Source of the DNA: an uncultured Candidatus Saccharibacteria bacterium
GTDB lineage: Bacteria; Patescibacteriota; Minisyncoccia; Phycocordibacterales; UBA918
Assembly (NCBI GenBank): GCA_964593375.1
Contig: CAZQIF010000001.1
Coordinates: 98,185-162,184 of the forward strand
Length of the DNA stretch: 64,000 bases
Reading direction: 5' to 3'
Shown: positions 40,127 to 59,275 of the stretch, piece after piece
Layout: each line of letters opens with the position of its first letter
How positions within the stretch are numbered: position 1 is the stretch's first letter
Made by a program: the position numbers and the translations under genes
Notes under the pieces: model-generated
The model's database searches: none
What the model was told of the DNA's origin: nothing
The model's input: only the letters and a program-made list of their open reading frames with translations

Positions 40127-41362
40127 CTACAACACTAGTAAATCTGGATTGAGAACAAGTAATGTTCCTAAAACAAGCATTAGGATTCCCCCCACAAGAA
40201 GCGACATTTGCGCGTACTTGTGTCCGTGCGCTTCAAGTTTTGAAAAGCCCCATATTGCGAGACCAAAGACAATGAAATCGTCGACCATATATCCAACCGA
40301 GTATACGATGAGGTAAAACTGTCGTGTTATAAAGTCGAGCTGATTGAGTTCGAGAATTTTGGTGTATGCCTGCGGAATACCGATAGAGCAAGCAAATTCG
40401 ATAACATTGACTGAGAACGCGAGTGCGATGATGCCAAAAATAGTGAGAATGGTTGTCGGGCGACTGATAAGGTCTTTGATGCGCGCCGTTGTCTTCCCTT
40501 GTGACTCAATATCACTTATGTCACACGTGAGTGCTTTGTTTCGATTTTTGCGATAGCGATACAAGAAGAAAATACCCCCTCCTACCGCAAGAAGTCCCAC
40601 GAGTGGTGTGACAATCGCGTCAAGACCTACAAAGTCCCATGCGGTAAACCACACATTGAGGATGAGGTTGTACATGATGGCTTCTGCAACCACAAAGATA
40701 CTCGCGACCATGACCATCTTTTTCCTGTCACCAATCTGCGAAAGAAGCACAAGGAAGGTGATGAGTACCCACATCGCACATGGATTAAAACCATCAATCG
40801 TTCCCAAAATTGCAGAGAGTGAAAAGAGTGAGAGTGTCTTTAAATCAACAACGCCGAGAAGTGGCAAGTTGAAGACGAACTGATTTGGATTCGTAATCGA
40901 ATCACAGGAAGTACCGTTTTCGTCGCACCCGGTGCCAACAAAACTATCTGATTGCTTCGGTGCTCGCGCGAGGTGGTCTTCGATGGTTTTAATGTCTGAT
41001 GAGCGTGCACGCAGAACCATTTCTTTAATGCGGACTCCAGTCGTATCCCCAGTACTAAAACCCTGAATCACTTCCCCACCTATAACGGTAAGCGGTGTGA
41101 CGTGCGAAAGCTCGTGCTTATTTAAAAGTGCCTCAAATGCTACTTTTGCTTCCTCATCATCAATTACATTCAGATATTCGTAGCTCACACTGGAATCATT
41201 AGCGCCATACGTATCCAAAAAAATCTTTTCGTCAGCACAATGGGTGCATTTGTCGCGTCCAAAAAGAAAGACGGTCACTGGTGCACTCGGCGCTTGTGCA
41301 AAGGTCGTGTAGCTAAATAGACTAACGAAAATAAAGCACAATATAATGAATAGGCGTGTCAT
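40127..41362 (-). CDS. Thiol-disulfide oxidoreductase-like membrane protein. It has a signal peptide and an N-terminal thioredoxin/glutaredoxin-like CxxC domain fused to a CcdA/DsbD-like polytopic domain with TM cysteines.
   Basis: The CTHC motif, and NPCAMW and EFACSIG in TM helices. The assignment is tentative. Confidence 0.5.
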   Translation of the reverse strand: MTRLFIILCFIFVSLFSYTTFAQAPSAPVTVFLFGRDKCTHCADEKIFLDTYGANDSSVSYEYLNVIDDEEAKVAFEALLNKHELSHVTPLTVIGGEVIQGFSTGDTTGVRIKEMVLRARSSDIKTIEDHLARAPKQSDSFVGTGCDENGTSCDSITNPNQFVFNLPLLGVVDLKTLSLFSLSAILGTIDGFNPCAMWVLITFLVLLSQIGDRKKMVMVASIFVVAEAIMYNLILNVWFTAWDFVGLDAIVTPLVGLLAVGGGIFFLYRYRKNRNKALTCDISDIESQGKTTARIKDLISRPTTILTIFGIIALAFSVNVIEFACSIGIPQAYTKILELNQLDFITRQFYLIVYSVGYMVDDFIVFGLAIWGFSKLEAHGHKYAQMSLLVGGILMLVLGTLLVLNPDLLVL

Positions 41363-44103: not shown

Positions 44104-44355
44104 CATGAGTCTCTCCTCGAGTGAATAAGAGCAAAACTTACCAACCGGCATAGTACCACAAAATCTTAGTACTTCCAGACGAACGTACCCCGTGGACTTT
44201 ATCAAACGACATATTTCTGGTATAACTATGGCCGGAAATTAAGAAGCGCAAGCAACTATAATTTCCGAGCCCGTCGGTTCATGTGTCCCAGAGAGACACC
44301 TTGAACAGACGCCAGAGGCAAACGCTCAGTACAGAACAAACGTAGATACACATTC

Positions 44356-44545
44356 GGCCTCATCGTCTGACGCTGAAATTTGTATGATGCGAATGCATCA
44401 TAACAAGCAAACTGCTTTGCTTGTGTACAAATTTCAGAATCGGAGCATGTCGCTCTGCGACAGCGAGATGGGGTCGCGGAATTTCGCAAGAAATATCCGA
44501 GACTAGGACAGCTGGTCTTGTAAACATCCAGCAAATCGGTTCAGT
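44356..44545 (+). pseudogene. Pseudo-tRNA-Glu. The 5' acceptor/D fragment GGCCTCATCGTCTGACG lies at 44356-44372, followed by a 131-nt insert. A D/anticodon-arm fragment with an enlarged loop lies at 44503-44544. The T arm and 3' acceptor are missing.
   Basis: Direct alignment to the intact tRNA-Glu immediately downstream. Confidence 0.6.
44373..44437 (+). repeat. 65-nt cloverleaf-like structured insert: a 12-bp closing stem ctgaaatttgta/tacaaatttcag enclosing the two hairpins tgatgc-gaat-gcatca and acaagcaaa-ctgc-tttgcttgt
   Basis: Read directly. It lies inside the pseudo-tRNA. Confidence 0.55.
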
Positions 44546-44557
44546 ACAATTACAGAC

Positions 44558-44629
44558 GGCCTCATCGTCTAACGGTTAGGACAGCTGGTTCTCATCCAGC
44601 AAATCGGGGTTCGATTCCCCGTGAGGTCA
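44558..44629 (+). tRNA. tRNA-Glu (anticodon CTC)
   Basis: A manually folded cloverleaf. The acceptor is GGCCTCA/TGAGGTC, the D arm GTCTAACGGTTAGGAC, the anticodon stem GCTGG/CCAGC with loop TTCTCAT, and the T arm CGGGGTTCGATTCCCCG. Total length is 72 nt and CCA is not encoded. Confidence 0.85.
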
Positions 44630-44644
44630 TGTTACAAAAGCGAG

Positions 44645-44667
44645 CACGTATTAACGTGCCGTTTTTG
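44645..44667 (+). terminator. Intrinsic terminator gcacgtattaacgtgc followed by cgttttt, after the tRNA
   Basis: A perfect 6-bp stem followed by a T run. Confidence 0.6.
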
Positions 44668-44683
44668 TTAATGACCTCACGGG
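44654..44683. repeat. 30-bp direct repeat acgtgccgtttttgttaatgacctcacggg, copy 1. It contains the reverse-complemented tRNA-Glu 3' end. Copy 2 lies at 45692-45720.
   Basis: Direct comparison gives 26 of 29 identical positions. Confidence 0.65.
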
Positions 44684-44834
44684 CAAGAGTGTATAGACAC
44701 TCTTGCAGGGGAATCGAACCACCGGAACGATGTTACATCGTCACGAGTGAGGTGTGTCCCGCGGCACTTAATATTTTGTAAGTGAAGCGCAACAAAATAT
44801 TTAGTGACCGTCAGGATCATTCCCCATGAGGTCA
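44671..44834. pseudogene. Further tRNA-Glu-derived fragments. One is minus-oriented with a T-arm/acceptor-like sequence interrupted by the 22-nt hairpin caagagtgtatagacactcttg. A plus-oriented 3' fragment gatcattccccatgaggtcac lies at 44814-44834.
   Basis: Similarity to the tRNA-Glu T arm and 3' end. No intact cloverleaf could be folded. Confidence 0.45.
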
Positions 44835-44988
44835 CAAATCACCATCAGCAACACGGAGGCCCGGCCTCCGTGTTAACCACTGCAAACCAAACTGATTTAA
44901 ATTCGCCATACTTCTGTTTTTGTGTTATAAATTTAATAGTCTTTGTTATTTGTAAGCCAAACACATAGAGAAAGAAAGGCATTCCAAC

Positions 44989-45552
44989 ATGACCCTAACG
45001 CTCGAAGAGCCCGGAGTTAATACTTGGGGATTGAAATCGTATATGCCCAAGGGTAATTTGTTTTTCCCATATGTCATCACTCGTCCCTTGGTGGCGTGGG
45101 ACATGCTACCCCTGATGCTCTTTCAGAAGTATCTTTCGGAAGAAACGGTTAGACAACGTTTCCACTACAACAAGAAGCTCGACCAACGGATACGCTGGGA
45201 TCGCCTGATGGATGCGTGCACTATCGATTACCAGAACGATATCGCCTTCGTCGCCACCAGTCTCATTGGTTCGATTCTTGGACTTGTGCAACTATATCGC
45301 GACAAGCCAAAGTCTGAATCAGCTGAAATCGCATTCGTGGTACGAGATGATCTTCAGAAGAATGGCCTGGGGCGTACGCTCACGCGTCGCACCCTTGAGG
45401 CTGCGCGGCTCCGTGGCATAACAGCAGTACATGGTGTCACCGAGCCCGAAAACACCCCGATGATTCGCGCATTTCTTTCGTGGGGATTCACCATCAAACG
45501 AGTCGACGGTGAGGTTGAGGCAACGCTCGTGCTTCCGCCAATCCAAAGCTGA
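44989..45552 (+). CDS. GNAT family N-acetyltransferase
   Basis: The acetyl-CoA-binding motif LQKNGLGRTL (Q/RxxGxG/A) is present. Confidence 0.8.
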   Translation: MTLTLEEPGVNTWGLKSYMPKGNLFFPYVITRPLVAWDMLPLMLFQKYLSEETVRQRFHYNKKLDQRIRWDRLMDACTIDYQNDIAFVATSLIGSILGLVQLYRDKPKSESAEIAFVVRDDLQKNGLGRTLTRRTLEAARLRGITAVHGVTEPENTPMIRAFLSWGFTIKRVDGEVEATLVLPPIQS

Positions 45553-45691
45553 TGTTGAACAAAAGCACCCCTTCATCCGTTACGTCGCGCCAAGCACGTA
45601 ACGGATTTTCTTTATTCAAGGCAAATACCCTCCCATGATTCATTTAGTCACCTCACATTTACAGAGATTCTGCCCTCGGGAACATACATGT

Positions 45692-45720
45692 GTGTGCCGT
45701 TCTTGTTAATGGTCTCACGG
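45692..45720. repeat. Direct repeat copy 2, gtgtgccgttcttgttaatggtctcacgg
   Basis: See 44654-44683. The two copies bracket the GNAT gene. Confidence 0.65.
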
Positions 45721-45830
45721 TTTTAATCGTGACTTGCGCACATTTCTAAAGAAGATTGTCTTCACCCTTCACAAAAAACCGACTTTCCTCTATTATCAAC
45801 TCCGAGTTTACAAACCAATGGAGGTATTCC

Positions 45831-46187
45831 ATGGAAAAAGTTCCTTTAGTACAGTACGGTGGAGTTATTCAGACTCTGCTTGCTGAAATCATGAACAAAC
45901 GACGTGGAGCAATGAAAGGATCACAGGAGCAATATAGCGATATTCCACCTCGAGATTTTTTCGCCTACATTGCAAAGCACCCACTCCCCGAAGTCGAGTA
46001 TTTTGACAGATGGATGGCCGAGAAAGTGAACGAGATCATCCGCTTCATCAACAAAACTGATGATGCGCTGAATCTCAAGCGTGCAATCAACTACGTACTC
46101 AAACAAAGCGGAAACAATGGGCACTGCCCGTTTGCGGGAGACAACTATAGTCCCGACCGCCTCGAGATTGATGACAGAGATGAATAA
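45831..46187 (+). CDS. Hypothetical protein (118 aa)
   Basis: RBS ggagg precedes the ORF and a strong terminator follows at 46215-46275. The ORF is open from 45756. Confidence 0.4.
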   Translation: MEKVPLVQYGGVIQTLLAEIMNKRRGAMKGSQEQYSDIPPRDFFAYIAKHPLPEVEYFDRWMAEKVNEIIRFINKTDDALNLKRAINYVLKQSGNNGHCPFAGDNYSPDRLEIDDRDE

Positions 46188-46279
46188 AACAACCTACGGA
46201 GAGAGCACACAGGACTCCAGCTCCCGCTTATGAAGACAAAGACTGTCTTCATAAGCGGGGGCTGTTTTATTTTTGATAC

Positions 46280-46380
46280 TAATCCAACTTAATACACTGC
46301 ACGGGGCAGGCCTCAGTAGCGTCTTTGTTGGCTTCGAAATTGGCTTCGTCGATTGGTGCGACGACCACGCGATTATTTTT
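46280..46380 (-). pseudogene. Ferredoxin 3'-end remnant encoding ...KNNRVVVAPIDEANFEANKDATEACPVQCIKLD*. It is the displaced copy of the fdx C-terminus.
   Basis: It is about 85% identical to 47018-47118. The first 37 nt, which include the stop codon, are identical. Confidence 0.6.
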
Positions 46381-46609
46381 TGGTACGCTTGAGAAAATTG
46401 AGATATACAACCCTATCGATACCGAGTGTACGAAGATTATTAAGTACAATCATTTGTGGTAACTGTGAGTCTCTTGGGATTACAATTGGTCTGTTTATTC
46501 CCACTTTCCAATAGATGCGGTGGTCTCCCTTTTCCCTTTTAAACTCACAACCCTGACTCAAAAGAAACTTTTCGAATTCTTTCCAATGTATTGCGCCTAT
46601 TTTTGGCAT
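46373..46609 (-). CDS. hicA: HicA-family type II toxin (mRNA interferase)
   Basis: KEFEKFLLSQGCEFKREKGDHRIYW...VIPRDSQLPQ..VLNNLRTLGI matches the HicA/YcfA pattern. Confidence 0.7.
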   Translation of the reverse strand: MPKIGAIHWKEFEKFLLSQGCEFKREKGDHRIYWKVGINRPIVIPRDSQLPQMIVLNNLRTLGIDRVVYLNFLKRTKK

Positions 46610-46621
46610 GCGGAGGAAATG

Positions 46622-46903
46622 TTAGGCAAAAGTAGGTACCTTAACACTAAAATCTTTCGTCGTAATAGTTGGTGGAGTCCATTGTTTTAGAACTTTCTTC
46701 CACCCAAGTTCAGAAAGTACTTCGTCGGTAGTGCCGGCATTATGCAGTTCTTCAAAAAAAATACCCACAAGTTCATTGAAGCGTGCTTTCACCTCCTTAT
46801 CTGATTTACCTGAAGTTGCGATATCAAGAGCAGGCGCATACGCAACAAAGCGACGGCCTTGCTTAGAAATATTGACTTTAAGTTGCAGAGAATTTGGAAT
46901 CAT
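46622..46903 (-). CDS. hicB: HicB-family antitoxin
   Basis: RFVAYAPALDIATSGKSDKEVKARFNELV is a UPF0150/HicB-like N-terminal domain. The gene lies upstream of hicA in the same operon. Confidence 0.6.
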   Translation of the reverse strand: MIPNSLQLKVNISKQGRRFVAYAPALDIATSGKSDKEVKARFNELVGIFFEELHNAGTTDEVLSELGWKKVLKQWTPPTITTKDFSVKVPTFA

Positions 46904-47026
46904 ATACTTACAGGTTACACCACCACAAAAACTCGGTCAATCATCGATAATTTCATGTACGTTTGCCAAGATTTTGTTACGGCAATTCTATAGTTTATAC
47001 ATAGGTCCGGCCTTCGTAATTGTACG

Positions 47027-47263
47027 TTAATCCAACTTAATACACTGCACGGGGCAGGCCTCAGCAGCGTCTTTGTTTGCTTCGTAGTCGGCTTCATCAA
47101 TTTGAGCCACCACCATTTTATTCCCTTTCATTTTTCCATTCTGGAGGTCGGACTTCCCATCTTCTTCATTCATCTTCCAATTTTTTGGTGCAAGCATCGA
47201 GCAAGAACCACACCCGATACAGGAGTTACGTTGATGACAAATGATAATTTTTTTGATTCCCAT
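47027..47263 (-). CDS. 4Fe-4S ferredoxin
   Basis: The cluster motifs CIGCGSC and ACPVQC are present. The protein is 78 aa long. Confidence 0.8.
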   Translation of the reverse strand: MGIKKIIICHQRNSCIGCGSCSMLAPKNWKMNEEDGKSDLQNGKMKGNKMVVAQIDEADYEANKDAAEACPVQCIKLD

Positions 47264-47314
47264 ACAATGTATTAATTACCCGCAAACTCTCTAGGGGACC
47301 CCTAGAGAGTTTGA

Positions 47315-48577
47315 CTAATTATCCGTTTCTGTTCTGTCTTTCCAGAGATACACGCGGTCATTTTCGCGGACACGACTTGTGACGGGAATGGTTATGATAT
47401 CCCCTTTCTTTGCCTCAGTCACCGGAATCCTATCCACATTGCGAAGTTCAGTAACCGTTGCTGAGTACACTCCCGTGGTCCGTCCAATAATTTTAATCTC
47501 GTCGCCAACTGCAATATCACCCGCATCGAGAAGAATTTCTGCAACACCTGCTTTCACAAAATATGATTGCACCACACCGAGTGCAAATTTTTCTTTGGCC
47601 GCCTTAGAACCTTTCACGTCGCTGTATGCATCTATTTCTTGTCCAAGATAGTAGTTACCGTGCGAAAGTGTGCGGTTGTATACGGTTTTGAGTGATTCAT
47701 AGTACCCCTCAATTTTTTCTTTTGTGTACGTGCCATTTTGCACGTCGAGGAGTGCATGTTTGTATGCTCGGGTCACAACCTCAACATACTCTGGCGCACG
47801 TCCACGTCCTTCGATTTTAAATACCTGTACACCTGCATCGAGAAGCTCGGGTATCTTATCAATCATGCAAATATCAGCGGCACTGAGCACATACTGATTG
47901 TCGACAACAAGCTCTTGCCCCGTTTCTAAATCGGTTACCTTGTATGCGCGTCTACAATTCTGCCTGCATGCCCCACGGTTTGCGGAAGAATTGTCGGTAT
48001 AGAGACTCATGAGACAGCGCCCTGATTGTGCGATGCAGAGTGCACCGTGCACAAAAGCTTCAATCTCCATGAGTCGTCCTTCATTTCCCATGAGATTTTC
48101 TTCACGAATTTTGAGTCCAATATCCTTGATTTGGTTCAGGGTAAGTTCACGAGCGAGCACAACGCGGTTCGTGAGATTTGCAAAGAATTTGACCGACTCA
48201 TAGTTTGAGACAGAAAACTGTACCGAAATATGCACCGGCATTTTTATTTCATTGCAGTACTGCACCGTTGCAAAATCAAAGGCAATGATAGCGTCGACAT
48301 TATTCTCTTTTGCAGCGTCAACGATTTTTCGCATGAGCTTTGTGTCATGGTCGTAGAGGAGTGTGTTCACCACAAGGTACGCTTTCACCTTATGTTCGTG
48401 GCAAATATCAGCGACTTCTTTAATGTCCGCAAGTGTCATGTTGTCTGCGGCACGAGCACGCATATTGAGCTGTGTGACACCAAAGTAAATACTTCCGCAT
48501 CCTGCCTGAATAGCGGCCATGAGACTATCAAAACTCCCTGCAGGGGACATTATTTCAGCTTCTTCTGGTTTCACCAT
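47315..48577 (-). CDS. Peptidase U32 family protein (RlhA/TrhP-like RNA hydroxylation family)
   Basis: EAFVHGALCIAQSGRCLMS and a U32 body of about 420 aa. Confidence 0.85.
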   Translation of the reverse strand: MVKPEEAEIMSPAGSFDSLMAAIQAGCGSIYFGVTQLNMRARAADNMTLADIKEVADICHEHKVKAYLVVNTLLYDHDTKLMRKIVDAAKENNVDAIIAFDFATVQYCNEIKMPVHISVQFSVSNYESVKFFANLTNRVVLARELTLNQIKDIGLKIREENLMGNEGRLMEIEAFVHGALCIAQSGRCLMSLYTDNSSANRGACRQNCRRAYKVTDLETGQELVVDNQYVLSAADICMIDKIPELLDAGVQVFKIEGRGRAPEYVEVVTRAYKHALLDVQNGTYTKEKIEGYYESLKTVYNRTLSHGNYYLGQEIDAYSDVKGSKAAKEKFALGVVQSYFVKAGVAEILLDAGDIAVGDEIKIIGRTTGVYSATVTELRNVDRIPVTEAKKGDIITIPVTSRVRENDRVYLWKDRTETDN

Positions 48578-48628
48578 AGCAAAAAAGTGTACTTGGAATT
48601 AGGAGAAGTGGCAAGGAAAAATATTCCC

Positions 48629-49243
48629 TTACCCATAAAACTCAATCATGCGGTTTACCTTATCTTCAATACTCATCAGAGGGCCGAGACATTCACTGTA
48701 CTCGAGGGTTGCAGAGGCATTCTTCCAAAAATGAAACTTGTGTTTTGCATTGAGACCCGTAAGTCGCACGAGCACAATCGGGACATTCTCTGAAAAAAGA
48801 ACTTTGGCTCCCCGTTCAAAGTCGGCAACCATATCGGAATCACGCACGATCTTCCCTTCTGGAAAAAGGAGAATCGTATATCCCTGCCGAAGAAAGTCTC
48901 GTGTGAGGAGAAGACGTTGCATGCGCTCCATGACGGTATTTCCAATATTGTATCCACCAAAGAGCCGGATGAAAAATCCGAGTATGGGGCGTTCCATGTA
49001 GTCGGGTGTCACCGGATAACGGACAGGAACCACATTCGTCCAGTTTCGTATCCCGATGTGGTACGTAATGAGAAATGGGTCAATCTTGCTCTGGTGGTTC
49101 GCCACAATGAACGTACCATGTGTTATGCGTAGACCATCTGGACGTTTAACGGTAATCCGGAGAAGTCGCGTCAGCACAAAATTGACCGGTATGGTCATGT
49201 ACTGAATTGCAACAAACCAGCCCTTCATGAGAATCTTTTGCAT
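48629..49243 (-). CDS. plsC: 1-acyl-sn-glycerol-3-phosphate acyltransferase (PlsC/LPLAT family)
   Basis: NHQSKID matches HxxxxD, and FPEG is present. The ORF is open to 49276. Confidence 0.8.
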   Translation of the reverse strand: MQKILMKGWFVAIQYMTIPVNFVLTRLLRITVKRPDGLRITHGTFIVANHQSKIDPFLITYHIGIRNWTNVVPVRYPVTPDYMERPILGFFIRLFGGYNIGNTVMERMQRLLLTRDFLRQGYTILLFPEGKIVRDSDMVADFERGAKVLFSENVPIVLVRLTGLNAKHKFHFWKNASATLEYSECLGPLMSIEDKVNRMIEFYG

Positions 49244-49304
49244 GGTTAATTGATAGCCAGTATAACACGCCATCAAAGCCCTTACTGATACTGTGTTTTA
49301 GTGT

Positions 49305-49787
49305 CTAGAGCAGTTGCCCAATAATCACCACATAGTTTTTGCCATACTTCTTCGCACATTTTGGACAAGTGGTATACCACATGAACATTTTTTTGACCGC
49401 CATTCCCTTCTCAGTGGTGAAGCGTTCAAAATCTTCCATCCATTTTCCGGTGTCTTTGAAATTGCCTTCATACACCTTACTAAAGAAGTTGCCACTCATG
49501 ACGACGTTTTCAGCATCTTCAACTTTGGTATCAACAGATATGTACAAATCCATATTCCACTTAGAAGTATGGTCTGAAAGCCACATAGCGTCCGCACCCA
49601 CAGTGCCCGTTTTTTCAATTTTTTCCTGACAACGCTTCATAACCCCGCCAAAGTTAACGGGCATATAGAAAAGCGTAAAGACTTTGTCTTTGATAAATTT
49701 CTTGTTGTTCCACGTAAATGTTTTATTGTCCCATGGTGCTGGATCAAATTTTAAGCAACATACTTCTTCTTTTTGTAGTGTTTCCAT
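49305..49787 (-). CDS. Hypothetical protein (160 aa)
   Basis: The ORF has a conserved-looking C-terminal CPKCAKKYG. I recognise no family. Confidence 0.4.
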   Translation of the reverse strand: METLQKEEVCCLKFDPAPWDNKTFTWNNKKFIKDKVFTLFYMPVNFGGVMKRCQEKIEKTGTVGADAMWLSDHTSKWNMDLYISVDTKVEDAENVVMSGNFFSKVYEGNFKDTGKWMEDFERFTTEKGMAVKKMFMWYTTCPKCAKKYGKNYVVIIGQLL

Positions 49788-49810
49788 TGTTGTATGGTTA
49801 TCTTATACCA

Positions 49811-50149
49811 TTACTTCTTTTTAACTTTTTTCTTTGGAAGCGGAACATGTAAAGCGGTAATACTGATGAGTTCACAAAGCCATTCGCGGTCTTCAATACT
49901 ATCTTCATCGATGCACATAGACACTTTCGCTCCATCGTACGCATAACCTTCTTTGTATCGTTCCCCGACAAACTCTCTCCCATCCTCAGTAATTCTTACG
50001 AATAGTGTATCGTCACAGACAAGTGCAACAACTCTCCCCTCGCAATACAGAGCATACTCACCAAACATTTTCCGTGCAGTAACACCCTCAATTTCTTGAA
50101 GTTGATCGAGTATGTAATCTACTGTTGCTTGACTGGTTGCCATATACAA
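49811..50149 (-). CDS. TfoX/Sxy N-terminal domain protein (competence-regulator-like)
   Basis: MFGEYALYCEGRVVALVCDDTLFV matches the TfoX_N pattern. Confidence 0.7.
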   Translation of the reverse strand: MYMATSQATVDYILDQLQEIEGVTARKMFGEYALYCEGRVVALVCDDTLFVRITEDGREFVGERYKEGYAYDGAKVSMCIDEDSIEDREWLCELISITALHVPLPKKKVKKK

Positions 50150-50161
50150 CCATTATACGCC

Positions 50162-52570
50162 TTACTTCCCTGTTCCTTTATTGAGTTCTGCGCGCGTGAG
50201 TGGACCAACAAAACCGACAGCGGGGGTAATGTTGTGCAGTTTCTGGTACGCAATGACCGCCTCGCGCGTAATGGGGCCAAAATACCCTGTGTCGGTTGGA
50301 TACGTAAAGAGACCCAAAGTGCGCAAGTGCTTTTGCAGCTGGGTTACGTCGTTTCCTGACATACCGATATGAAGGTTCATCGTGAAGTTAAACGTACTCG
50401 CACCTAACACTTGACTAGGTGGTGGTACAACAGGTGCAGGTTGTACTATTTTTCGCTTGTGAGACTTTGAACCGGTTTGCGAATGAGACACTTCTTTCTC
50501 CTTCACCATTACTGTGCGGATGACCGGTATTGCTTCATTTCCTGCCGAGTCCTCGACTGTATAGGTAACGGTGTACGAACCGACCGTTGCGGTGTTTACG
50601 GTGTTTACAACATTTATTTTTGCAGTAATGCTTCCATCGACATCATCTTGCGCGGTTGCTCCAGCATCGCTGTACGAGTCGCCTACTGTCACCGAAACAG
50701 GATTATTTCCCAGAAGTGTTATTACTGGATTTGTCGTATCTTTCACAAAAACCGGAACACCTCTGAGATATGGGTATCCTCCATTTACACTTGCCTTCAC
50801 TGCCCAAATATCTTCAAAATTCCATCCGACAAAACTAGCCTGTTGTTTCATTTGTGCGGTTGTGAGACCGTTTGCGTCTGAGCACGACTCCGGCACATTC
50901 CAATCAGTACTTCCGCACATCTTTAGGTAACCTGATACTTCAGTATCCCAATATGAACCTGACTGGCTCCCTCTTTGATACTGCCAACCAATGAGTCCTC
51001 CGGAGCTCCCTGGTCCTATGAGTTGAACCGCTGCGTATGAATTTACGACATCACCATAGCTTATCCATTGTTCATTGATTCCCACAATACCACCGATATT
51101 TCCTCCGCTTGATGCCGTCATCTTCCCGAGGGCATAGCAGTTTTCGATGTGTCCTGAGTAGTTTTGACCTGCTATGAGTCCAGCCGGCCCGAGTTCACCA
51201 CTCATGGTAAGGTCTGCATAACTGCGAGAAATAATTCCTGAATTTTGTGAAGCAATGCCTCCACACTTTCCGTTACAGGTCATTACTCCTTGAATTGAGG
51301 TTTTTTCAATTGTTCCGTTGTGAAAGTTCACGATACCGCCACAGTACGTCGATGAGCAAAAAATGTTTGCATTTGTGAAGTTTACTCCAGTGATTTTTGC
51401 ACCAGAAGAAATGGTGTCGAAGATTCCTCTGTTGTTACTTTCTCTCGAAACCATTCGCAAGTTCTTAATGAGGTGGCCTTGGCCATCGAGTTGTCCACCA
51501 AATTCACCGATGGCAGTGAAGTTTGAGATTCCCGAGCAGTCAATGTCATTCTCAAGGCGATAAAACCATCCGGGATGTGCGCTGATATTTTGGAATTCTC
51601 CGCACGTGGTAATTGGTGAAGGATTACTTGCGGATGAACCAAGGCCGACATTATTTACCACGACAGTAACTGGATTCGTCGTACCAATATTATCAGCATT
51701 GTCTGTCATGACCGCAAAGAGCTTGTATGTGCCATCTAGAACTACCGTGGAATCCCAACTAAATGTGAATGAGGGCATGTAATCGTAACTATTCCAGTCT
51801 CTTTCATCGAGGGGCTTGCATGCAATCTCGGTTTCGGGGCTCGCAACTCCATATTTTAAGCATACGTCCTTAACAAGTGATTGATTATCTTCAGCATTAA
51901 CAAACACGTTAACGGTACCCTTAACTTGTCCGAGCGTTGATGGGTCATCGACACGACCAGTGGGAGCTGTCGTGTCAGAACAAATCTCAACTGGTCCTGG
52001 GCCGCCATATCCATCACAGTCATTATCAATACTATCGCCACATATTTCAGGGCCTGTATAAATGCACATATATTGGTCACAGGCGTTACCGATACCATCT
52101 TTGTCATCATCAAGCTGGTTTGGGTTACTTGTAAGTGGACAATTGTCTGCAACATCTCCCAAACGGTCACCATCAGAATCTTGTTGCTCTGGATTGTAGT
52201 GACTTGGTGCGTTGTCACATGGGTCCCCGACACCATCGTCGTCACCGTCTGCCTGACCTGAATTTGAAAGGTTTGGGCAGTTATCAACTACAGTTCCTAC
52301 GCCGTCTGCATCAGGATCTTCTTGACCTGGATTTGGATCATAGGGTGCGTTATCACATACAGAACCGATGCCATCCCCATCAGGGTCTGCTTGGTCTGCA
52401 TTTGCAACACTTGGACAGTTGTCGAGTGAATTTCCTACCCCATCGAGATCATTATCTTCAATAGGAACATCTGCATAAGCAATTGAAATAAAAAAGCTTG
52501 CACCAAGTAGTACTGTGGCAAGAAGCATCGCATATTCACGAGCGTGAATAGACCTTATGAAAAAATTCAT
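50162..52570 (-). CDS. Large secreted cell-surface protein. It has thrombospondin type-3-like Ca-binding repeats, GLUG-motif repeats, an Ig-like (DUF5011-type) domain and a C-terminal peptidoglycan-binding domain.
   Basis: A signal peptide. Repeated DxDxDGxGDxCDN repeats, GGIVG/GGLIG repeats, and LLGNNPVSVTVGDSYSDAGATAQDDVDGSI. The C-terminus LQKHLRTLGLF..DTGYFGPITREAVIAYQ is PG_binding_1-like. Confidence 0.75.
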   Translation of the reverse strand: MNFFIRSIHAREYAMLLATVLLGASFFISIAYADVPIEDNDLDGVGNSLDNCPSVANADQADPDGDGIGSVCDNAPYDPNPGQEDPDADGVGTVVDNCPNLSNSGQADGDDDGVGDPCDNAPSHYNPEQQDSDGDRLGDVADNCPLTSNPNQLDDDKDGIGNACDQYMCIYTGPEICGDSIDNDCDGYGGPGPVEICSDTTAPTGRVDDPSTLGQVKGTVNVFVNAEDNQSLVKDVCLKYGVASPETEIACKPLDERDWNSYDYMPSFTFSWDSTVVLDGTYKLFAVMTDNADNIGTTNPVTVVVNNVGLGSSASNPSPITTCGEFQNISAHPGWFYRLENDIDCSGISNFTAIGEFGGQLDGQGHLIKNLRMVSRESNNRGIFDTISSGAKITGVNFTNANIFCSSTYCGGIVNFHNGTIEKTSIQGVMTCNGKCGGIASQNSGIISRSYADLTMSGELGPAGLIAGQNYSGHIENCYALGKMTASSGGNIGGIVGINEQWISYGDVVNSYAAVQLIGPGSSGGLIGWQYQRGSQSGSYWDTEVSGYLKMCGSTDWNVPESCSDANGLTTAQMKQQASFVGWNFEDIWAVKASVNGGYPYLRGVPVFVKDTTNPVITLLGNNPVSVTVGDSYSDAGATAQDDVDGSITAKINVVNTVNTATVGSYTVTYTVEDSAGNEAIPVIRTVMVKEKEVSHSQTGSKSHKRKIVQPAPVVPPPSQVLGASTFNFTMNLHIGMSGNDVTQLQKHLRTLGLFTYPTDTGYFGPITREAVIAYQKLHNITPAVGFVGPLTRAELNKGTGK

Positions 52571-52680
52571 AAAATTGAGATTAAAATTATGTAATACGTA
52601 TAGACATCTATCTATATGTCAATAATAGTACTCCCCGCAATACGGGTGTCAATAAATATTTTAGTTTGATGTATTAAAAG

Positions 52681-52713
52681 GGGCCGGATGCGCGATGCGC
52701 ATCCGGCCTTTGT
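52681..52713 (-). terminator. Strong hairpin ggccggatgcgcgatgcgcatccggcc flanked by cctttt / tttgtt; bidirectional
   Basis: A perfect 12-bp stem. Confidence 0.6.
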
Positions 52714-52729
52714 TGGAACGGGGAACGAA

Positions 52730-52978
52730 CTAGTAGTGGTTATTCGAGCAACTGGGATCTGCACACACATAGTGCGGGAGTCCCGCATGCTCATTTTCAC
52801 CATTTCTGGATGGGATGCTTGGGTTCGTGGCATAAAACACATTGACTTTGATCATTTTTATACCACAATGCCTTGGATTGCCGTTTTGGTGTGTTGGAAC
52901 CGATACACGGAAGCAGCCCGGACGAGCCTTTCTCACCAAACTCACGATTTCGGAGTTGGCTTTGCGAACATGTAGCAT
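52730..52978 (-). CDS. Small Cys/His-containing hypothetical ORF (82 aa), speculative
   Basis: It is terminated by the hairpin at 52681-52713, but coding evidence is weak. Confidence 0.2.
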   Translation of the reverse strand: MLHVRKANSEIVSLVRKARPGCFRVSVPTHQNGNPRHCGIKMIKVNVFYATNPSIPSRNGENEHAGLPHYVCADPSCSNNHY

Positions 52979-53052
52979 GTACTTTTCTCCTGTTAATTAC
53001 GGAAAATTCCGGTGCTTTTATACAATTTTTTCATTTAAATGTCAATTGGGAG

Positions 53053-54069
53053 TATAGAAACATTTAGGGTGCTTTTATGAACCTTTGAGTAACTCTGAGA
53101 TAACTTTAAATCGTCTATCTTTTCGAAGTCCATGATGTTGCGCAACTTTCTTTTTGAGGCCGGCAAAATATCCATCAATAGTATTTGTAGTGTTGGGAAT
53201 ATTAAGTTCAGGGTATCGCTGATAGGTGAACAAATGGGGAAGATTTGTTGCGAGTGAACGATACGCACTCCGTACGTTCTTGTGTGTGTAGTACCAATGC
53301 TTGGTACCAAGAACATACGTCTTCTCAGTAATGAAGGAACGGTACTGCTTCTCCCAGAGGGTAAGTGCAGTGGTAAAGACCTCTTCGGTAGTGTGTGGCA
53401 AGGTGAGCATGAGCGTGCGAAGGTCTTGTCCTGCTTGTGTTTCAGGTTTTCTCGTAAGGTACTTCGTCACCGTCTTCATCTGGTGGAAGTGACATACTTG
53501 TACTGGTATGTCTTTAAAGACGGTGGCTAAGCCACGCCGTCCGTCAATAACCGCAGCGGTGAAGATCCACCCACGTGACTCGAGTATTTTTCGTCCGTAG
53601 TGGTAGTGTGCCATGATTTCACTTGATACTTCACCCCACCAAAGATTCTTGTGGAGTGTCCACGATCTAAACACACAGACACCATATAGACGTCCCCAGA
53701 ACGTAGTGTCTGCGACGATGATAGTGGCTTGGGGTATGAGGTCGGTCTGTGTGACCGCATGGGCATCAAGTTGTTTGCGTACCCACACATGACTCTTCCC
53801 GTATGTATGAGCAAGTTCATTGAGTGTTTGCTTGCCGTGAGTGTATGCGTGCCAAAGCTTTTCTGGTATTCCTGTGTCTCTCTTTTTATATTGAAATCGA
53901 TACCCGCACACACCGCACTGATATCGTTGCACACGATTGCGTGTTCCATTCTTTTTAACGGTTATTGCACTGCATTTGGAGCAAATCCGCTGTTTTTTTA
54001 TGCAGTGTCATAAATTATTCAACTTTTATAATTAAATAGAGCCGTACTATAGCAAAAATAGCACCCCAA
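53053..54069 (-). mobile_element. IS1-family-like insertion sequence of about 1.0 kb. Its 24-bp imperfect terminal inverted repeats are agaaacatttagggtgctttt (left) and aaaatagcaccccaaatgtttct (right).
   Basis: The inverted repeats were read directly at both ends of the transposase gene. Confidence 0.65.
53075..53932 (-). CDS. IS1-family transposase (InsAB-like fusion)
   Basis: The QRYQCGVCGYRF zinc-finger half and a DDE-type body are present. The upstream CSKCSAITVKKNGTRNR half of the InsA-type finger is in another frame. An ATG at 54009-54011 would fuse in frame if the A7 run at about 53993-53999 were A6. Confidence 0.65.
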   Translation of the reverse strand: MQRYQCGVCGYRFQYKKRDTGIPEKLWHAYTHGKQTLNELAHTYGKSHVWVRKQLDAHAVTQTDLIPQATIIVADTTFWGRLYGVCVFRSWTLHKNLWWGEVSSEIMAHYHYGRKILESRGWIFTAAVIDGRRGLATVFKDIPVQVCHFHQMKTVTKYLTRKPETQAGQDLRTLMLTLPHTTEEVFTTALTLWEKQYRSFITEKTYVLGTKHWYYTHKNVRSAYRSLATNLPHLFTYQRYPELNIPNTTNTIDGYFAGLKKKVAQHHGLRKDRRFKVISELLKGS

Positions 54070-54242
54070 ATGTTTCTTTAGCTCACAAATTGATTCTACG
54101 CAACAAAAAACCACCGGCTACTCACCCAGAGGTTTTTTGTTCGTAAGACTCGAGTGAATACTTTGGCCACAAAGTATTGCTTGAGCGATTACTATCTTTC
54201 TTCACATTGAACTACACTGTTGCCGTCCATATTTTCTGTTCA

Positions 54243-54833
54243 TTACAAGCAAGGTGCACATTGCGCATTTCTTTTAAGCTCTTCGATTTCTCCTTTGAGT
54301 ATTTCCATATGGGCAACAATTTTTTGTGTTTGTTCAGTCATCTTTACTTCAAATTGATTCGTGTGTCGGGCGAGTGTTTCAGCTACACTGATCATTTCGG
54401 TGATGTCTTCCATGGCAAGCAGAATAATCGGAGGAAAGACTTCTATCGAGGTATCTTTGCGGTGAATCTGACGTGCGTTAAGGATAATCACTTTCCTTCC
54501 AATTGACGGGAAATCGTGCGTGACTTCAAAACCCTTAAAAAATGTATTATGCGGGAGTATATCTTCTAACAGTTTTCGTAGCTGTGGAATATCCCACTGA
54601 CCATTCCCGAGTTCATACACAACCTTTCCTTCCGTGTCATCTGGATCAACTTGAAACGTACGGTAAAACGGTTCATTTGCAGCCATCACACAGAGATTTT
54701 TGTTGAGAATAAGTACAGGCTCACGCACAACATCAACCACTGTTTTAATGTATGTCCAACTTTCACCCCAGAGTGCCCCAAAATACCCTGCTTCGGATTT
54801 TAGATTAGGTGTATCCTCTTTAAGTGTTTTCAT
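54243..54833 (-). CDS. PAS domain protein with a C-terminal coiled coil
   Basis: PVLILNKNLCVMAANEPFYRTF is a PAS fold. There is no kinase domain. Confidence 0.6.
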   Translation of the reverse strand: MKTLKEDTPNLKSEAGYFGALWGESWTYIKTVVDVVREPVLILNKNLCVMAANEPFYRTFQVDPDDTEGKVVYELGNGQWDIPQLRKLLEDILPHNTFFKGFEVTHDFPSIGRKVIILNARQIHRKDTSIEVFPPIILLAMEDITEMISVAETLARHTNQFEVKMTEQTQKIVAHMEILKGEIEELKRNAQCAPCL

Positions 54834-54947
54834 ATATTCATTGCCGTAATAGTGAATATATTATTGCAAATTTTTTGTATATACTTTCATATTCTGTAAC
54901 TAGCAAAGAACCGCACAATGATTCACATCATTCAGTGAGGATTGATT

Positions 54948-56885
54948 TTAGTTGTGACCAAAATATCGTGGGAAAAGTGGTGGCATACCATCTTGAGTAC
55001 TTCCATCAGTTTCTATAGGAACCTGCGCAACTGACTCTGGCCACGGAAGTGGGAGATTACCCGTAAACGGCACATCTCCGAAAAGCACATCAGCAACTCC
55101 CTGTCCTTCACTCCCGGGAAGCCATGCCATAACGAGCGCATCCCATGATGGAACTTCGTCAGTAATGATGAGCGGTCGACCAGAAACGAGAATGACGATT
55201 ACCTTTTTGCATACAGATTTTAGTTGTCGAATTGTATTTAAATCGGGAGGACTGAGGGTTGGATTTGCATTATCACCCCACCCTTCTGCGTATGGTGCTT
55301 CACCAACAACTGCAATACCTAAATCAGCGAGTGGTGTTGTGGTACTGAAATTTCCATTTTGGTTATATTCGACAAGAACATTTTTTCCGGCGCGTGCCTT
55401 AATGCCAGAGAGAATCGAGGTGCTCTGAGGAAGCCAGTTGCCATCTATCCCCTGCCACTCAACCGTCCACGCGCCGGACTGTCTTCCAACATTATCTGCA
55501 GAACTCCCCGCAACGCGAATAGTGCGCACATTTTGTTTAATGGGCAAAATGTTTTCATCGTCTTTAAGCAGTACAAGTGATTTTTGGACTGCTTCACGTG
55601 CAAGTGCCCTATGTGCATCTCCACCAACGACACCTCCTGCAATATCGCCACTTCGCGGTTCGTCAAAAAGTCCGACTGCAAACTTAGCGCGAAGAATTCT
55701 GCGCACCGCATCATTAATACGCTCTTCTTTAACTTCACCACGTGATACAGCGCGTGACACATTCGCTATAAATGTTTGGTAATCAAACGGAAGCATGACC
55801 ATATCAACGCCCGCATTGATTGCAGTCACTGCTGCTCTGTATTCGCCTCCGGAGATTTCGTACACGCCATACCAATCTGAGACCACAAAGCCTTGAAACT
55901 TAAGTTCACCCTTGAGTACGTCGGTAATGAGATACTTTTCAGCACTCAGTTTTGTATTACCCCAACTATTGAGTCCAACCATGACACTCCCTGCACCGGC
56001 CAGAACTGCTGCTTTAAACGGCGGAAGATATTCTTGTTTGAGTGCATTTTCATTCACTTCTGTGGTTCCTTGGTCAATATGGAAATTCTTATTACTTGAG
56101 GTGTCCCACGCCATACTTCCCACACCAACATAGTGCTTTAAGGTGCTCAGTACTCTCAACGTTGAACTCCCATTATCTGAATTCTGAAGTCCTCGGACAT
56201 ATGCCGAGCCAAGCTTCGCAACAAGCGTTGGGTCATCAGAGAATGTTTCATAGGTTCTTCCCCAACGAATATCTTGCGGCATATCAAGTGTCGGCGAATA
56301 GCTCCAGTAAATTCCGGTCGCCATGAGTTCTTGTCCTGTTGCTCGAGCAACACGCTCAACAAGTTTTTCGTCTCCCGTCGCGCCGAGTCCTATCATGTGC
56401 GGAAAAATGGTTGCCTCGGTGAGATTTGAATGACCATGAATCGCATCAATGCCGTACAAGATTGGAATACCAAGACGACTCTGAAGCGACTTTTCTCTAA
56501 AGCTCGTAATCATTTCACGCCAACCCTTCACGTTGTTTTCTGTTGGTTTTGCGCCCATACCACTCAGCATTGCACCGATACCGTATGTGGTTATGTCGTC
56601 AAGAATGTGCACACTGTTTTTCTCTACAAGTACCATTTGAGCAATCTTTTCCCTAAGCGACATACGCGAGAGCAAATCCTCGACTCTGTTGTCGTCTGTG
56701 TGCGCTCCACTTCGATACAGTGCATCTTGTGGTGGCACCTCAAGCATTACCACCGGAACTATTGTTGGTGTTCTGAAATACGTTACTACAATGAATATGC
56801 TGAGAGCTAAAAAAATGACACCTACGACGAGTATGACGGGGCGCCATTTTTTAGATTTCATTTTTAGCTTTTTCACTCGTGACAT
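54948..56885 (-). CDS. Glycoside hydrolase family 3 (beta-glucosidase / beta-N-acetylhexosaminidase-like), membrane-anchored
   Basis: GIPILYGIDAIHGHS, KHYVGVG and GFVVSDW, the last containing the catalytic Asp, are present. Confidence 0.85.
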   Translation of the reverse strand: MSRVKKLKMKSKKWRPVILVVGVIFLALSIFIVVTYFRTPTIVPVVMLEVPPQDALYRSGAHTDDNRVEDLLSRMSLREKIAQMVLVEKNSVHILDDITTYGIGAMLSGMGAKPTENNVKGWREMITSFREKSLQSRLGIPILYGIDAIHGHSNLTEATIFPHMIGLGATGDEKLVERVARATGQELMATGIYWSYSPTLDMPQDIRWGRTYETFSDDPTLVAKLGSAYVRGLQNSDNGSSTLRVLSTLKHYVGVGSMAWDTSSNKNFHIDQGTTEVNENALKQEYLPPFKAAVLAGAGSVMVGLNSWGNTKLSAEKYLITDVLKGELKFQGFVVSDWYGVYEISGGEYRAAVTAINAGVDMVMLPFDYQTFIANVSRAVSRGEVKEERINDAVRRILRAKFAVGLFDEPRSGDIAGGVVGGDAHRALAREAVQKSLVLLKDDENILPIKQNVRTIRVAGSSADNVGRQSGAWTVEWQGIDGNWLPQSTSILSGIKARAGKNVLVEYNQNGNFSTTTPLADLGIAVVGEAPYAEGWGDNANPTLSPPDLNTIRQLKSVCKKVIVILVSGRPLIITDEVPSWDALVMAWLPGSEGQGVADVLFGDVPFTGNLPLPWPESVAQVPIETDGSTQDGMPPLFPRYFGHN

Positions 56886-56922
56886 CTTCCTACTATTGTA
56901 GCAAGCGAAAATCGAGATATCA

Positions 56923-57351
56923 CTAGTTTATGCATGATTTAGCCTTGAAAAAGTCCATAGCACTCGGCGTAGCCCCTGCTTTAATTTCGGCTACGCGCGC
57001 TACTCCGAGCTTCCCTTCGAAACAGGTAACCTGCGATGGACTAATTGATGCAGGAATAGTCGAAGGATCAATACCAAGTGCACTCAGTGCTGATTTTTGG
57101 GAGTCTGAGAGGTTAATGGGGATACTTTCTGATGCAGAGGTTGAAGTGGTGGTAGTTGTTCCAGTATTTGTATGTGTGTTTGTTGGCGTAACCGTTGTTA
57201 CCTCTGCTTTTGGTGTCCCTGATGAAAATGGTGTTGACATCATGCCAAGCGAGATAGCGAGATAGAATCCTATCCCCACAAGAATAAGTGCAAGAAAAAT
57301 TATACCGAGCGAAATGAAAGTGATTGAAACTGGTTTATTCATAGTACCCAT
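56923..57351 (-). CDS. Hypothetical membrane-anchored Thr-rich protein
   Basis: A TM anchor followed by a poly-Thr linker. Confidence 0.4.
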   Translation of the reverse strand: MGTMNKPVSITFISLGIIFLALILVGIGFYLAISLGMMSTPFSSGTPKAEVTTVTPTNTHTNTGTTTTTSTSASESIPINLSDSQKSALSALGIDPSTIPASISPSQVTCFEGKLGVARVAEIKAGATPSAMDFFKAKSCIN

Positions 57352-57440
57352 AGAGCCGTTCTTTAATGGAAATCATTTCACATAGCTGTTTTCTTCTGAA
57401 AAGGTAGTATTTAAAAAAATTATTGAACTTTTGAAGTGAG

Positions 57441-57611: not shown

Positions 57612-57707
57612 ATAAATAAATATTACTTGTATAAACCTTCACACTTTTCCCATAGCGTGAGAATGAAGCGAGCTTTTAAATACCTTCCTCAAACTTTTCT
57701 TGTTCAT

Positions 57708-57953: not shown

Positions 57954-57997
57954 ATAAATATGTATTAGGTTTTTATAACGTTAGTAACGTTTGTACA

Positions 57998-59204: not shown

Positions 59205-59221
59205 CTTAGGTAGTGCGCTAA

Positions 59222-59262: not shown

Positions 59263-59275
59263 TGTGAAATGGGTA

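Follow-up and report, generated by a model that had tools for sequence, protein, structure and literature searches.

Folded modules with copies of the tRNA end beside a tRNA-Glu gene at the edge of a variable region in a Patescibacteriota chromosome

Hotspots that are linked to tRNA genes and carry repeats of part of the tRNA are well known. Examples can be found in the tycheposons of Prochlorococcus (bioRxiv 10.1101/2020.12.28.424599), in the tandem islands at ssrA in Dehalococcoides (PMC3146451), and in the integrase-less, cis-mobilizable elements called CIMEs (PMC5704250). The locus described here lies in a 64-kb chromosome segment (the window, with a G+C content of about 44%) on contig CAZQIF010000001.1 of an uncultured Candidatus Saccharibacteria bacterium. 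The single tRNA gene of the window, tRNA-Glu(CTC), stands at the edge of a strain-variable region and is wrapped in small hairpin modules that occur across the lineage and carry copies of the gene's own ends.

The module downstream of the tRNA, here called U, is tentatively read as the part of a site-specific recombination hotspot that bears the attachment (att) site, with the recombinase acting in trans. The GNAT acetyltransferase gene that follows would then be an old cassette. The chance that this reading is right is put at somewhat less than even. The module family recurs in related genomes beside unrelated inserted genes, so the locus has the look of a hotspot at which genes have been inserted over a long time. 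As far as the libraries searched extend, a folded module with direct and inverted copies of the tRNA end and a counterpart on the 5' side is undescribed.

Several properties are shared with tycheposons, ssrA islands, and CIMEs. There, as here, direct repeats of the tRNA 3' end run from the T-loop on, the downstream cargo is variable, tandem arrays occur, and the tRNA remains intact; att-like repeats flank cargo that has no integrase of its own. Unlike those systems, the modules here are 130–200 nucleotides (nt) long and non-coding, with a fold that is conserved across genera. They also differ in having a hairpin-split inverted copy of the tRNA end, fragments on the 5' side, and no integrase at any locus seen.

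The window carries the housekeeping genes mraW, PBP, murE, truB, dnaB, GluRS, and CysRS. It was compared with 11 other contigs bearing tRNA-Glu(CUC), which represent about eight distinct relatives. Further loci (all loci are designated L001 and so on) were fetched with the neighbouring helicase as an anchor. This PIF1-type helicase adjoins the tRNA and has thousands of homologues, at 69–86% identity, in assemblies of Paceibacteria/Minisyncoccia type, which places the organism in this group of the candidate phyla radiation (CPR). The tRNA is close to the helicase in L001, L004/L005, L006, L007, L008, L011–13, and L014, and L002 carries the tRNA too. A 43-nt 5' part of the window tRNA is identical in L001 (a Candidatus Paceibacteria metagenome-assembled genome) and L002 (a metagenome contig). 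Between genomes that share the module family, the flanking helicase is only 74–77% identical in protein.

The module downstream of tRNA-Glu

From the tRNA onwards, the window contains the following features.

44558-44629, plus strand: tRNA-Glu(CUC), intact, with no encoded CCA (ARAGORN; Rfam RF00005, 60.8 bits)
44630-44671, plus strand: start of U, trailer and bidirectional intrinsic terminator (terminator scan of both strands)
44672-44682, plus strand: inverted tRNA acceptor 3' strand, TGACCTCACGG (complementarity to the tRNA)
44683-44706, plus strand: hairpin hp1, a perfect 10-bp stem with a 4-nt loop (self-complementarity)
44708-44720, plus strand: inverted T-loop and T-stem, GGGGAATCGAACC (13/13 complementary to 44608-44620)
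44747-44834, plus strand: degenerate U core (covariance model R1)
44819-44834, plus strand: direct tRNA 3' fragment (15/16 against 44614-44629)
44850-44874, plus strand: GC-rich perfect hairpin after the conserved flank CAAATC (self-complementarity)

In seven distinct genomes the tRNA is followed by at least one copy of U. The copies are located in the window, L001, L002, L004/5, L007, L008, L011, and L014, always directly 3' of tRNA-Glu(CUC) and on the tRNA strand. L006 has a bare tRNA-Glu locus, with no module. In the 185 kb searched, the covariance model R1 gave no match apart from tRNA-Glu(CUC) loci. U is not a miniature inverted-repeat transposable element or a REP-like (repetitive extragenic palindromic) dispersed repeat: no more copies are found in the window by BLAST or covariance model, nor in the tRNA-less loci L003, L009, and L010. 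The other repeats of the locus likewise have no further copy elsewhere in the 64 kb (BLAST).

The units occur in two types. An A-type unit consists, in order, of the trailer with the terminator palindrome, the inverted acceptor 3' strand, hp1, GG(A/G)GAATCGAA with the core, and a copy of the tRNA 3' end. Its terminus, (T)TCGATTC(Y)CC-GTRAGGTCA, equals the last 16–20 nt of the tRNA, from the T-loop through the discriminator base. B-type units (L001, L002B) are without the inverted acceptor copy. GAATCGAA is invariant in all modules. Six A-type starts were aligned, and at the hp1 position L002, L004, L007, L008, and L014 all have a perfect hairpin, the sequence of which differs in almost every genome. 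The number and make-up of the units vary: L011 has a tandem array, L002 two different units, and L004 one and a half. L014 looks like a fusion of both L002 unit types, with a core that is 79% identical to that of L002B and an hp1 as in L002A.

The copies match the tRNA of their own genome. The inverted acceptor copy covaries with it, reading TGACCTTA in L004 and TGACCCTA in L007 and L014. The acceptor pairing is CTCA/TGAG in the window, L001, L002, and L011, CTTA/TAAG in L004 and L008, and CCTA/TAGG in L007 and L014. Each module ends in the tRNA 3' end of its own genome, and the identity starts in the T-loop. The T-loop is also where assemblies tend to stop: 7 of the 13 tRNA-linked contigs end less than 400 nt from it (L002, L005, L007, L011, L012, L013, and L015), and the terminus of L015 is inside it. 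Such breaks suggest repeats, or strain-level structural variants, that start there. The contig ends are at L015:1-60, L012:1-25, L013:1-9, L011:1-184, L007:1-168, and L005:1-304.

In the window, 44630-44834 is a degenerate member of this conserved family. The terminator consists of a stem-loop at 44644-44659 and a T-run, and a palindrome of about 30 bp is centred on it, in which the tRNA 3' strand pairs with 44672-44682. Within this palindrome, the GGTCA/TGACC pairing is invariant in the six-genome alignment. The inverted copy as a whole covers tRNA nt 54–73 and is interrupted by the perfect hairpin. Its distal part, 44708-44720, is the 5' strand of P3, the stem that closes the U core, and pairs with the direct 3' fragment at 44819-44834. 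The original prediction had described a minus-oriented tRNA fragment split by a hairpin. Such a fragment is present, but it is better read on the plus strand, as the 3' arm of the palindrome and the 5' strand of the closing stems. The plus-oriented 3' fragment that had also been predicted was found at 44819-44834, with 15 of 16 positions matching. A CAAAT flank following the last tRNA-end copy is common to the window, L001, L004, L011, and L014.

The fold of the core was derived from an alignment of five sequences: L002A, L002B, L008, L014, and L011. In the RNAalifold prediction, P3 closes the core and encloses two hairpins, the long P4 and the short P5, the loop of which is an invariant GUA. 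The core is a three-way junction, in which the joining strand J4/5 is an invariant GUACUGA. Together with the GUA loop and GAG..CGAA, this strand makes up the invariant unpaired motifs. Double (compensatory) changes are seen at 20 of 32 pairs, and standard pairs fill 96.2% of the paired cells, against a shuffled mean of 74.5%. None of 500 shuffles equalled any observed measure, and sliding the partner by 1–3 columns leaves at most 4 pairs with double changes. This covariation comes from five sequences, and template switching can imitate the signal (PMC8794818).

The covariance model R1 was built from the same five cores. It matches two L001 units (31.8 and 20.8 bits) and, in the window, 44747-44834 with 21.8 bits (E = 0.0023 over 185 kb and 1.9e-5 in a local search). 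Of this fold, the window core retains P4 (44765-44806), although its apex is mutated, and the terminal fragment. It is classed as degenerate on account of the missing P5 and the mutated apical motif.

The fold might be that of an RNA. U could be a structured non-coding RNA with a tRNA-like 3' end, next to which the variable cargo is a coincidence; this is considered unlikely. Such an RNA would be transcribed by read-through from the tRNA promoter or from a promoter of its own, cleaved at its GGUCA ends by the enzymes that process tRNAs, and perhaps given a CCA tail. The conserved three-way junction, with compensatory changes beyond those in shuffles, speaks for it, as do the invariant unpaired motifs and the constant placement of the module, which is always on the tRNA strand and always stops at the discriminator base. 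Whole modules also fold better than shuffles (z of -6 to -11), and the 79% identity between the L002B and L014 cores is high for intergenic DNA at such divergence. Among tRNA-like RNAs, the tRNA-like domain of tmRNA, mascRNA, and the 3' external spacers of tRNAs resemble U in that their 3' end is a tRNA acceptor/T region and they are linked to tRNA, and the 5' and 3' ends of an A-type unit pair as an acceptor stem does.

Other properties are not those of an RNA gene. Between tRNA and core there is usually a strong intrinsic terminator, and no promoter is evident. Varying copy number, with partial copies beside cargo, would be unusual, and the window copy has lost P5. Unlike in known tRNA-like RNAs, the first 'acceptor' pair of U takes in the discriminator base. 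With Rfam 15, at gathering and permissive thresholds, the tRNA was the only match in the window locus, L001, and L002. Inspection by eye led to the rejection of the hammerhead and other small ribozymes: the junction motifs do not stand in the strands required, and the hammerhead core (CUGANGA ... GAAA) is absent. The stems consist almost wholly of Watson-Crick pairs: in L002A, 52 pairs are of this kind and one is G-U, and G-U makes up just 3% or so of the aligned paired cells. Both strands of the module fold equally well, so stability does not point to RNA either, and there are very few G-U pairs whose asymmetry could tell the strand of action. Because of the Watson-Crick stems, the equal folding of both strands, the terminator ahead of the core, and the lack of a fitting Rfam family, the evidence leans towards a role of the module as DNA.

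The 5' side of the tRNA gene

Upstream of the tRNA, the following features are found.

44217-44230, plus strand: extended -10-like promoter box, CTGGTATAACTATG (conserved in relatives)
44356-44372, plus strand: 5' fragment of a pseudo-tRNA, a copy of tRNA nt 1–17 (16/17 identical)
44373-44503, plus strand: hairpin-rich 131-nt insert in the pseudo-tRNA D-loop (folding z = -7.8 for the whole insert)
44504-44544, plus strand: middle of the pseudo-tRNA, with the 3' side of the D-stem, the anticodon arm, and the variable region (sequence identity to the tRNA)
44521-44550, plus strand: proximal promoter-like TAAACA-18-TACAAT (9/12 in a consensus scan; a consensus match only)

A box CTG[G/T/A]TATAA is located upstream of tRNA-Glu in 9 of 9 loci examined (the window, L001, L002, L004, L006, L007, L008, L011, and L014), at distances of 26 to 341 nt. 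It stands, as CTGGTATAAC(T), 26–52 nt ahead of the tRNA in L011, L002, and L006, and 76–341 nt ahead where a pseudo-fragment exists. The box at 44217-44230 is the ancestral tRNA-Glu promoter, and CTGGTATAAC(T)AT is useful as a promoter marker for this lineage.

The pseudo-tRNA is an old copy that keeps tRNA nt 1–17 and about nt 20–50. Its middle part is identical to the tRNA at 13 of 13 positions in 44504-44516 and 15 of 15 in 44525-44539, and a 12-nt loop replaces the 7-nt anticodon loop. In 64 kb, 44356-44372 is the sole other match to the 5' 17 nt of the tRNA (chance expectation 0.13), and for the tRNA-derived fragments of the locus the chance expectation is negligible. The original prediction had named the 5' copy, the 131-nt insert with a 12-bp stem enclosing two hairpins, and the D/anticodon copy with its 12-nt loop. 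All of these were confirmed, as was the intact tRNA-Glu(CTC) at 44558-44629 when ARAGORN and Rfam were run on the locus; every predicted fragment is present, with coordinates right to within a few bases.

The insert had also been called cloverleaf-like, which did not hold up. Its first part, 44373-44437, forms a Y-shaped structure in which 44373-44384 pair with 44426-44437 around the two hairpins. Within it, the 35 nt at 44387-44421 are homologous to the start of the L007 module (z = 7 against shuffles), a stretch that comprises the terminator 3' arm, the inverted end, and hairpin 1. The insert as a whole is a mosaic. It has no significant match to the U-core covariance model, and a wider likeness to B-type units, judged by eye, was not upheld beyond the 35-nt stretch.

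Equivalent 5' fragments that match the tRNA of their own genome are found in L008 (17/17), L007 (22/22), and L004 (10/10), and in degenerate form in L001. The identity extends over 10–22 nt and stops in the D-loop, where a hairpin of the hp1 family is next. In L001 and L008 the pseudo-fragment occupies the position that the real tRNA has in L011, behind the same GTTCAAATC-type leader. Because of this placement, the pseudo-fragment is recognised as the original 5' end of the gene. In the window, too, the upstream pseudo-tRNA is the old gene 5' end and still stands behind the conserved promoter. Inserts that brought a new 5' end and promoter-like sequence have displaced it and restored the gene. 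The proximal promoter-like site lies 7 nt ahead of the live tRNA and is made of the enlarged pseudo-anticodon loop and the sequence that replaces the T-arm; L008 has a TATAAT 13 nt ahead of its tRNA. Inserts on the 3' side supply a 3' end and a terminator, and those on the 5' side supply a promoter-like site and a 5' end. Gene-restoring inserts have therefore been received at either end of the gene, and this restoration resembles the behaviour of integrative elements that target genes.

One family of hairpin sequences is represented on either side of the tRNA, in the pseudo-tRNA upstream as well as in the module downstream (L007:300-330 compared with L014:3962-3990 and L002:2115-2140). Their loops are complementary: GTAAAGCAGTCTcccAGACTACTTTAC (ccc) in the L007 pseudo-tRNA and AGTAAACAGTCTgggAGACTGTTTAC (ggg) in hp1 of L014 and L002. 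The hairpins are therefore in opposite orientation, or the spacer has been inverted. In the window, hp1 (44683-44706) resembles a hairpin of the L001 pseudo-tRNA.

Copies of this kind can also be produced without any mobile element. Template switching is known to make and maintain perfect stems, to mimic compensatory change in a single step, and to invert loops or spacers (PMC8794818, PMC8604942). Fold-back or template switching at the palindromic terminator, together with tandem duplication and unequal crossing-over, could have made the copies here and could keep them homogeneous. Differences in cargo would then reflect ordinary gene turnover, or uptake of foreign DNA anchored by homology at a conserved tRNA. 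The near-perfect Watson-Crick stems that fold alike on both strands agree with this account, and so do the inverted copy, which lengthens the terminator palindrome outward, the hairpin family with inverted loops, and the way the copies follow each genome's own tRNA. It leaves unexplained the conserved unpaired motifs, the constant order of the module across lineages, the start of the identity blocks at the T-loop in every genome, and the restoration of the gene with terminator and promoter. For these reasons, an origin by template switching is judged quite unlikely.

The variable region and its cargo

The region downstream of the tRNA contains three features that bear on a role as an insertion site.

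44630-59275, no strand assigned: variable region from tRNA-Glu to murE/PBP (tblastx synteny)
44989-45552, plus strand: GNAT acetyltransferase, the first cargo (PF00583, 1.6e-9; NCBIfam Pat, 1.6e-11)
45694-45720, plus strand: eroded second copy of the terminator 3' arm and inverted tRNA end (24/27 against 44656-44682)

The 3' flank of tRNA-Glu is a real variable hotspot. The helicase/YgjP/TruB side and the murE/PBP side are syntenic among the relatives, and the interval between them is not conserved. From tRNA to murE the window has 14.6 kb, L004 about 2.0 kb, and L008 about 2.7 kb, and the genes in between are unrelated. As in tRNA islands, the tRNA is intact and its end is directly repeated, in the window by 44614-44629 and 44819-44834 and likewise in L001, L002, L004, L008, and L011. 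Presence and absence vary as well: L006 has the tRNA without a module, and cargo and interval differ among the window, L001, L004, L008, and L014. The first genes downstream in these last five genomes are as follows.

Window: GNAT; bracketing repeat of 27 nt, 89% identity, 1038-bp period
L004: alpha/beta hydrolase; no bracketing repeat found
L008: Peptidase_C39; bracketing repeat of 88 nt, 97% identity, 752-bp period
L001: CheB/CheR/kinase fusion; bracketing repeat of 220 nt, 95% identity, 497-bp period
L014: protein of unknown function; no bracketing repeat found

The five genes are mutually unrelated, and all of them (5/5) point the same way as the tRNA. In three genomes the first cargo stands between partial module repeats: GNAT in the window, the C39 peptidase in L008, and small open reading frames (ORFs) in L001. 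In L008 and L001 the bracketing repeat begins exactly at the last five bases of the tRNA, GGTCA. The repeat around GNAT, predicted as 30 bp, is present with a length of 27 nt (24/27), and the predicted layout, in which terminator and inverted tRNA end bracket a gene, recurs with other cargo in L008 and L001. For the 27-nt pair, the chance expectation in 2.5 kb is about 3.5e-5, and 45694-45720 would mark the right end of a GNAT cassette. A second full module after GNAT was considered and rejected, as 45553-45760 is not significantly structured (z = -1.57). In L001, the 277-nt cargo between the two modules contains an internal 60-nt direct repeat, 90% identical, inside the small ORFs (L001:6053-6226), and QMVKFEYDNQVEAY occurs twice there.

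GNAT resembles the GNAT domain of Pat-type acetyltransferases. It is nearly an orphan, with the nearest non-self representative 46% identical and others at most 42%, and it is missing from the locus of every relative compared. A role as a tRNA-acetylating toxin was considered and set aside: an antitoxin ORF is lacking upstream, and among families the Pat-type GNAT domain is the one it resembles best. The databases have a single entry for this GNAT (P0001, NCBI), which is 114 aa long and begins at residue 74 of the 187-aa ORF. This deposited gene call is probably too short, because the Pfam matches span residues 32–168.

The tRNA fragments could be inert scars, the attL and attR sites left by successive islands or prophages that carried an integrase and have since decayed, with hairpins that have no role. 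Direct tRNA 3' repeats starting in the T-loop, variable cargo, and tandem arrays are classic signatures of islands, and both the window module and its 27-nt repeat are degenerate. However, neutral remnants would not remain alignable, with compensatory changes, between genomes in which the helicase is 74–77% identical in protein. The same architecture in at least seven genomes, the fixed positions of the inverted copy and hp1, and the absence of integrase remnants from any locus examined also argue against scars, which are accordingly thought improbable.

The original prediction, repeated site-specific integration and excision at the tRNA with GNAT as cargo, is partly supported, and the observation behind it is confirmed. 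The variable hotspot stands, and so do the identity blocks from T-loop to 3' end as possible att sites. The fragments are not strain-specific scars, because the family is conserved, with compensatory changes, at the helicase divergence just given. The similarity of the fragments to the tRNA is significant, and the loci of relatives are not identical, with varying modules and cargo. An empty site had been expected among relatives. L006 provides a bare tRNA-Glu, but among those compared there is no close relative with an exactly empty GNAT site.

The rest of the 14.6-kb region encodes, besides GNAT, hicA, a ferredoxin, a U32 peptidase, an acyltransferase, a PF20603 hydrolase, TfoX_N, a GH3 glycosidase, a sigma factor, and an 802-aa surface protein with thrombospondin-type repeats. 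A PAS-domain ORF (54243-54833) is the only ORF of the variable region with a counterpart near the tRNA in L001.

A second small cassette is found 1.3 kb away, at 46279-47263. An 88-nt direct repeat (46280-46367 and 47028-47115, 88% identical) duplicates the 3' end of a ferredoxin gene (78 aa, 4Fe-4S, minus strand, 47027-47263). It flanks the toxin gene hicA (46373-46609; PF07927, 6.7e-9) and a 93-aa partner ORF (46622-46903) with no family match. This cassette shows an insertion style akin to that of GNAT: the 3' end of a gene is duplicated, and there is no integrase.

On the conserved side, a 411-aa ORF without a Pfam match (40127-41362) lies between truB and the YgjP-like gene. It has a counterpart in L014 (7169-8305, about 71% identity) and is absent at that position in L004, L006, and L008. 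L005 carries an IS200/IS605-type Y1 transposase gene (PF01797, L005:4229-4636) between truB and yqeY. The gene is not in the near-identical region of the sister contig L004, and no link to the tRNA modules was found.

A candidate recombination site

If U is the att-bearing module of a recombination hotspot, as is tentatively preferred here, the modules would be parts of attachment sites at which a recombinase acts in trans. Crossover would take place in the T-loop at the 3' side and in the D-loop at the 5' side. Recombination between two modules, or between a module and the tRNA end, would insert and remove small cassettes, of which GNAT with its flanking 27-nt repeat may be one, of old date and eroded in part. 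As DNA, the conserved hairpins would serve either as folded single-strand sites or as sites for protein binding, which fits their almost purely Watson-Crick stems. Each module supplies a terminator for the tRNA, as gene-restoring elements do.

Several observations weigh against this. Pfam finds no integrase in 44630-59275, and none adjoins the tRNA in five relatives, including the first downstream genes of L001, L004, L008, and L014; the enzyme for the tRNA-Glu 3' end that had been predicted was thus not found in either place. The only tyrosine recombinase in the window (10419-11390) is Xer-like and 34 kb from the tRNA. Neither the module nor the tRNA 3' 20-mer turned up in any phage, plasmid, or viral contig. 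The degenerate window copy and its short 27-nt repeat count on the same side, as do the small sample (five seed sequences and about eight distinct genomes) and the invariant unpaired motifs with strong covariation, which would suit an RNA too. Crossover in the D-loop is not known from integrases; Williams, in 2002, reportedly listed the anticodon loop, the T-loop, and the 3' end as the places of integrase crossover.

The search for a carrier element gave little else. The tRNA 3' 20-mer has no exact match in IMG/VR. A pattern of the U motif gave nine viral matches, none of which fits the covariance model or carries a tRNA, and they are put down to chance. BLAST of 44230-44990 returned tRNA-Glu genes only from phage records and nothing from plasmids.

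Recombination sites that act as folded single strands are known from integrons, in the attC sites and the clusters of attC sites lacking integron integrases (CALINs) (PMC4792948). Like these, the modules are imperfect palindromes in which structure is conserved over sequence, they lie between small co-oriented cargo genes (5/5 loci), and the array is headed by a fixed primary site, here the tRNA end. Unlike an integron, the window has no IntI. The best NCBIfam models for its tyrosine recombinase are XerC/XerD, and integron-integrase models reach 67 bits against a 265-bit cut-off. The R''/R' core sites of attC (RYYYAAC ... GTTRRRY) are lacking, with GTTAATG in the window, GTTGATG in L002, and no GTT in L008. 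The sites here end in tRNA sequence, and most units are without a gene.

A second comparison is offered by CTX phage and other users of the host Xer enzymes, the attP of which is a folded single strand (PMC3442271, PMC4246890). By analogy with that attP, two inverted copies of the target could fold on each other and form a hairpin that mimics the target in its double-stranded state. The element would also resemble CTX phage in lacking a recombinase of its own and in leaving an inverted copy beside the hybrid site after integration. In contrast to CTX attP, the target here is a tRNA 3' end and not dif, and no phage or replicon is attached.

From these two analogies, an integron-like cassette system on a tRNA could be imagined in Paceibacteria, with the tRNA-Glu 3' end as primary site, folded U as cassette site, and a host Xer-type recombinase in place of a dedicated integrase. 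Single-stranded U would imitate the duplex of the tRNA end. Small cassettes (GNAT, the C39 peptidase, and others) would be inserted and exchanged, perhaps after uptake as single-stranded DNA by naturally competent cells, and the fragments on the 5' side would represent a second variant of the system that targets the D-loop. This more specific proposal is a long shot, and very doubtful.

In bacteria of the candidate phyla radiation (CPR/Patescibacteria), genomes are tiny, few mobile elements can be recognised, and a genetic system is lacking; the ways in which accessory genes come and go are poorly understood. A conserved, structured module that is tied to one tRNA gene and stands at the head of a hypervariable region would give a searchable marker of gene flux in these organisms. 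The module would be a candidate substrate for recombination, or else a new tRNA-linked RNA. If template switching should prove to be its origin, the locus would be an unusually clear natural case of palindrome-driven concerted evolution that mimics RNA covariation.

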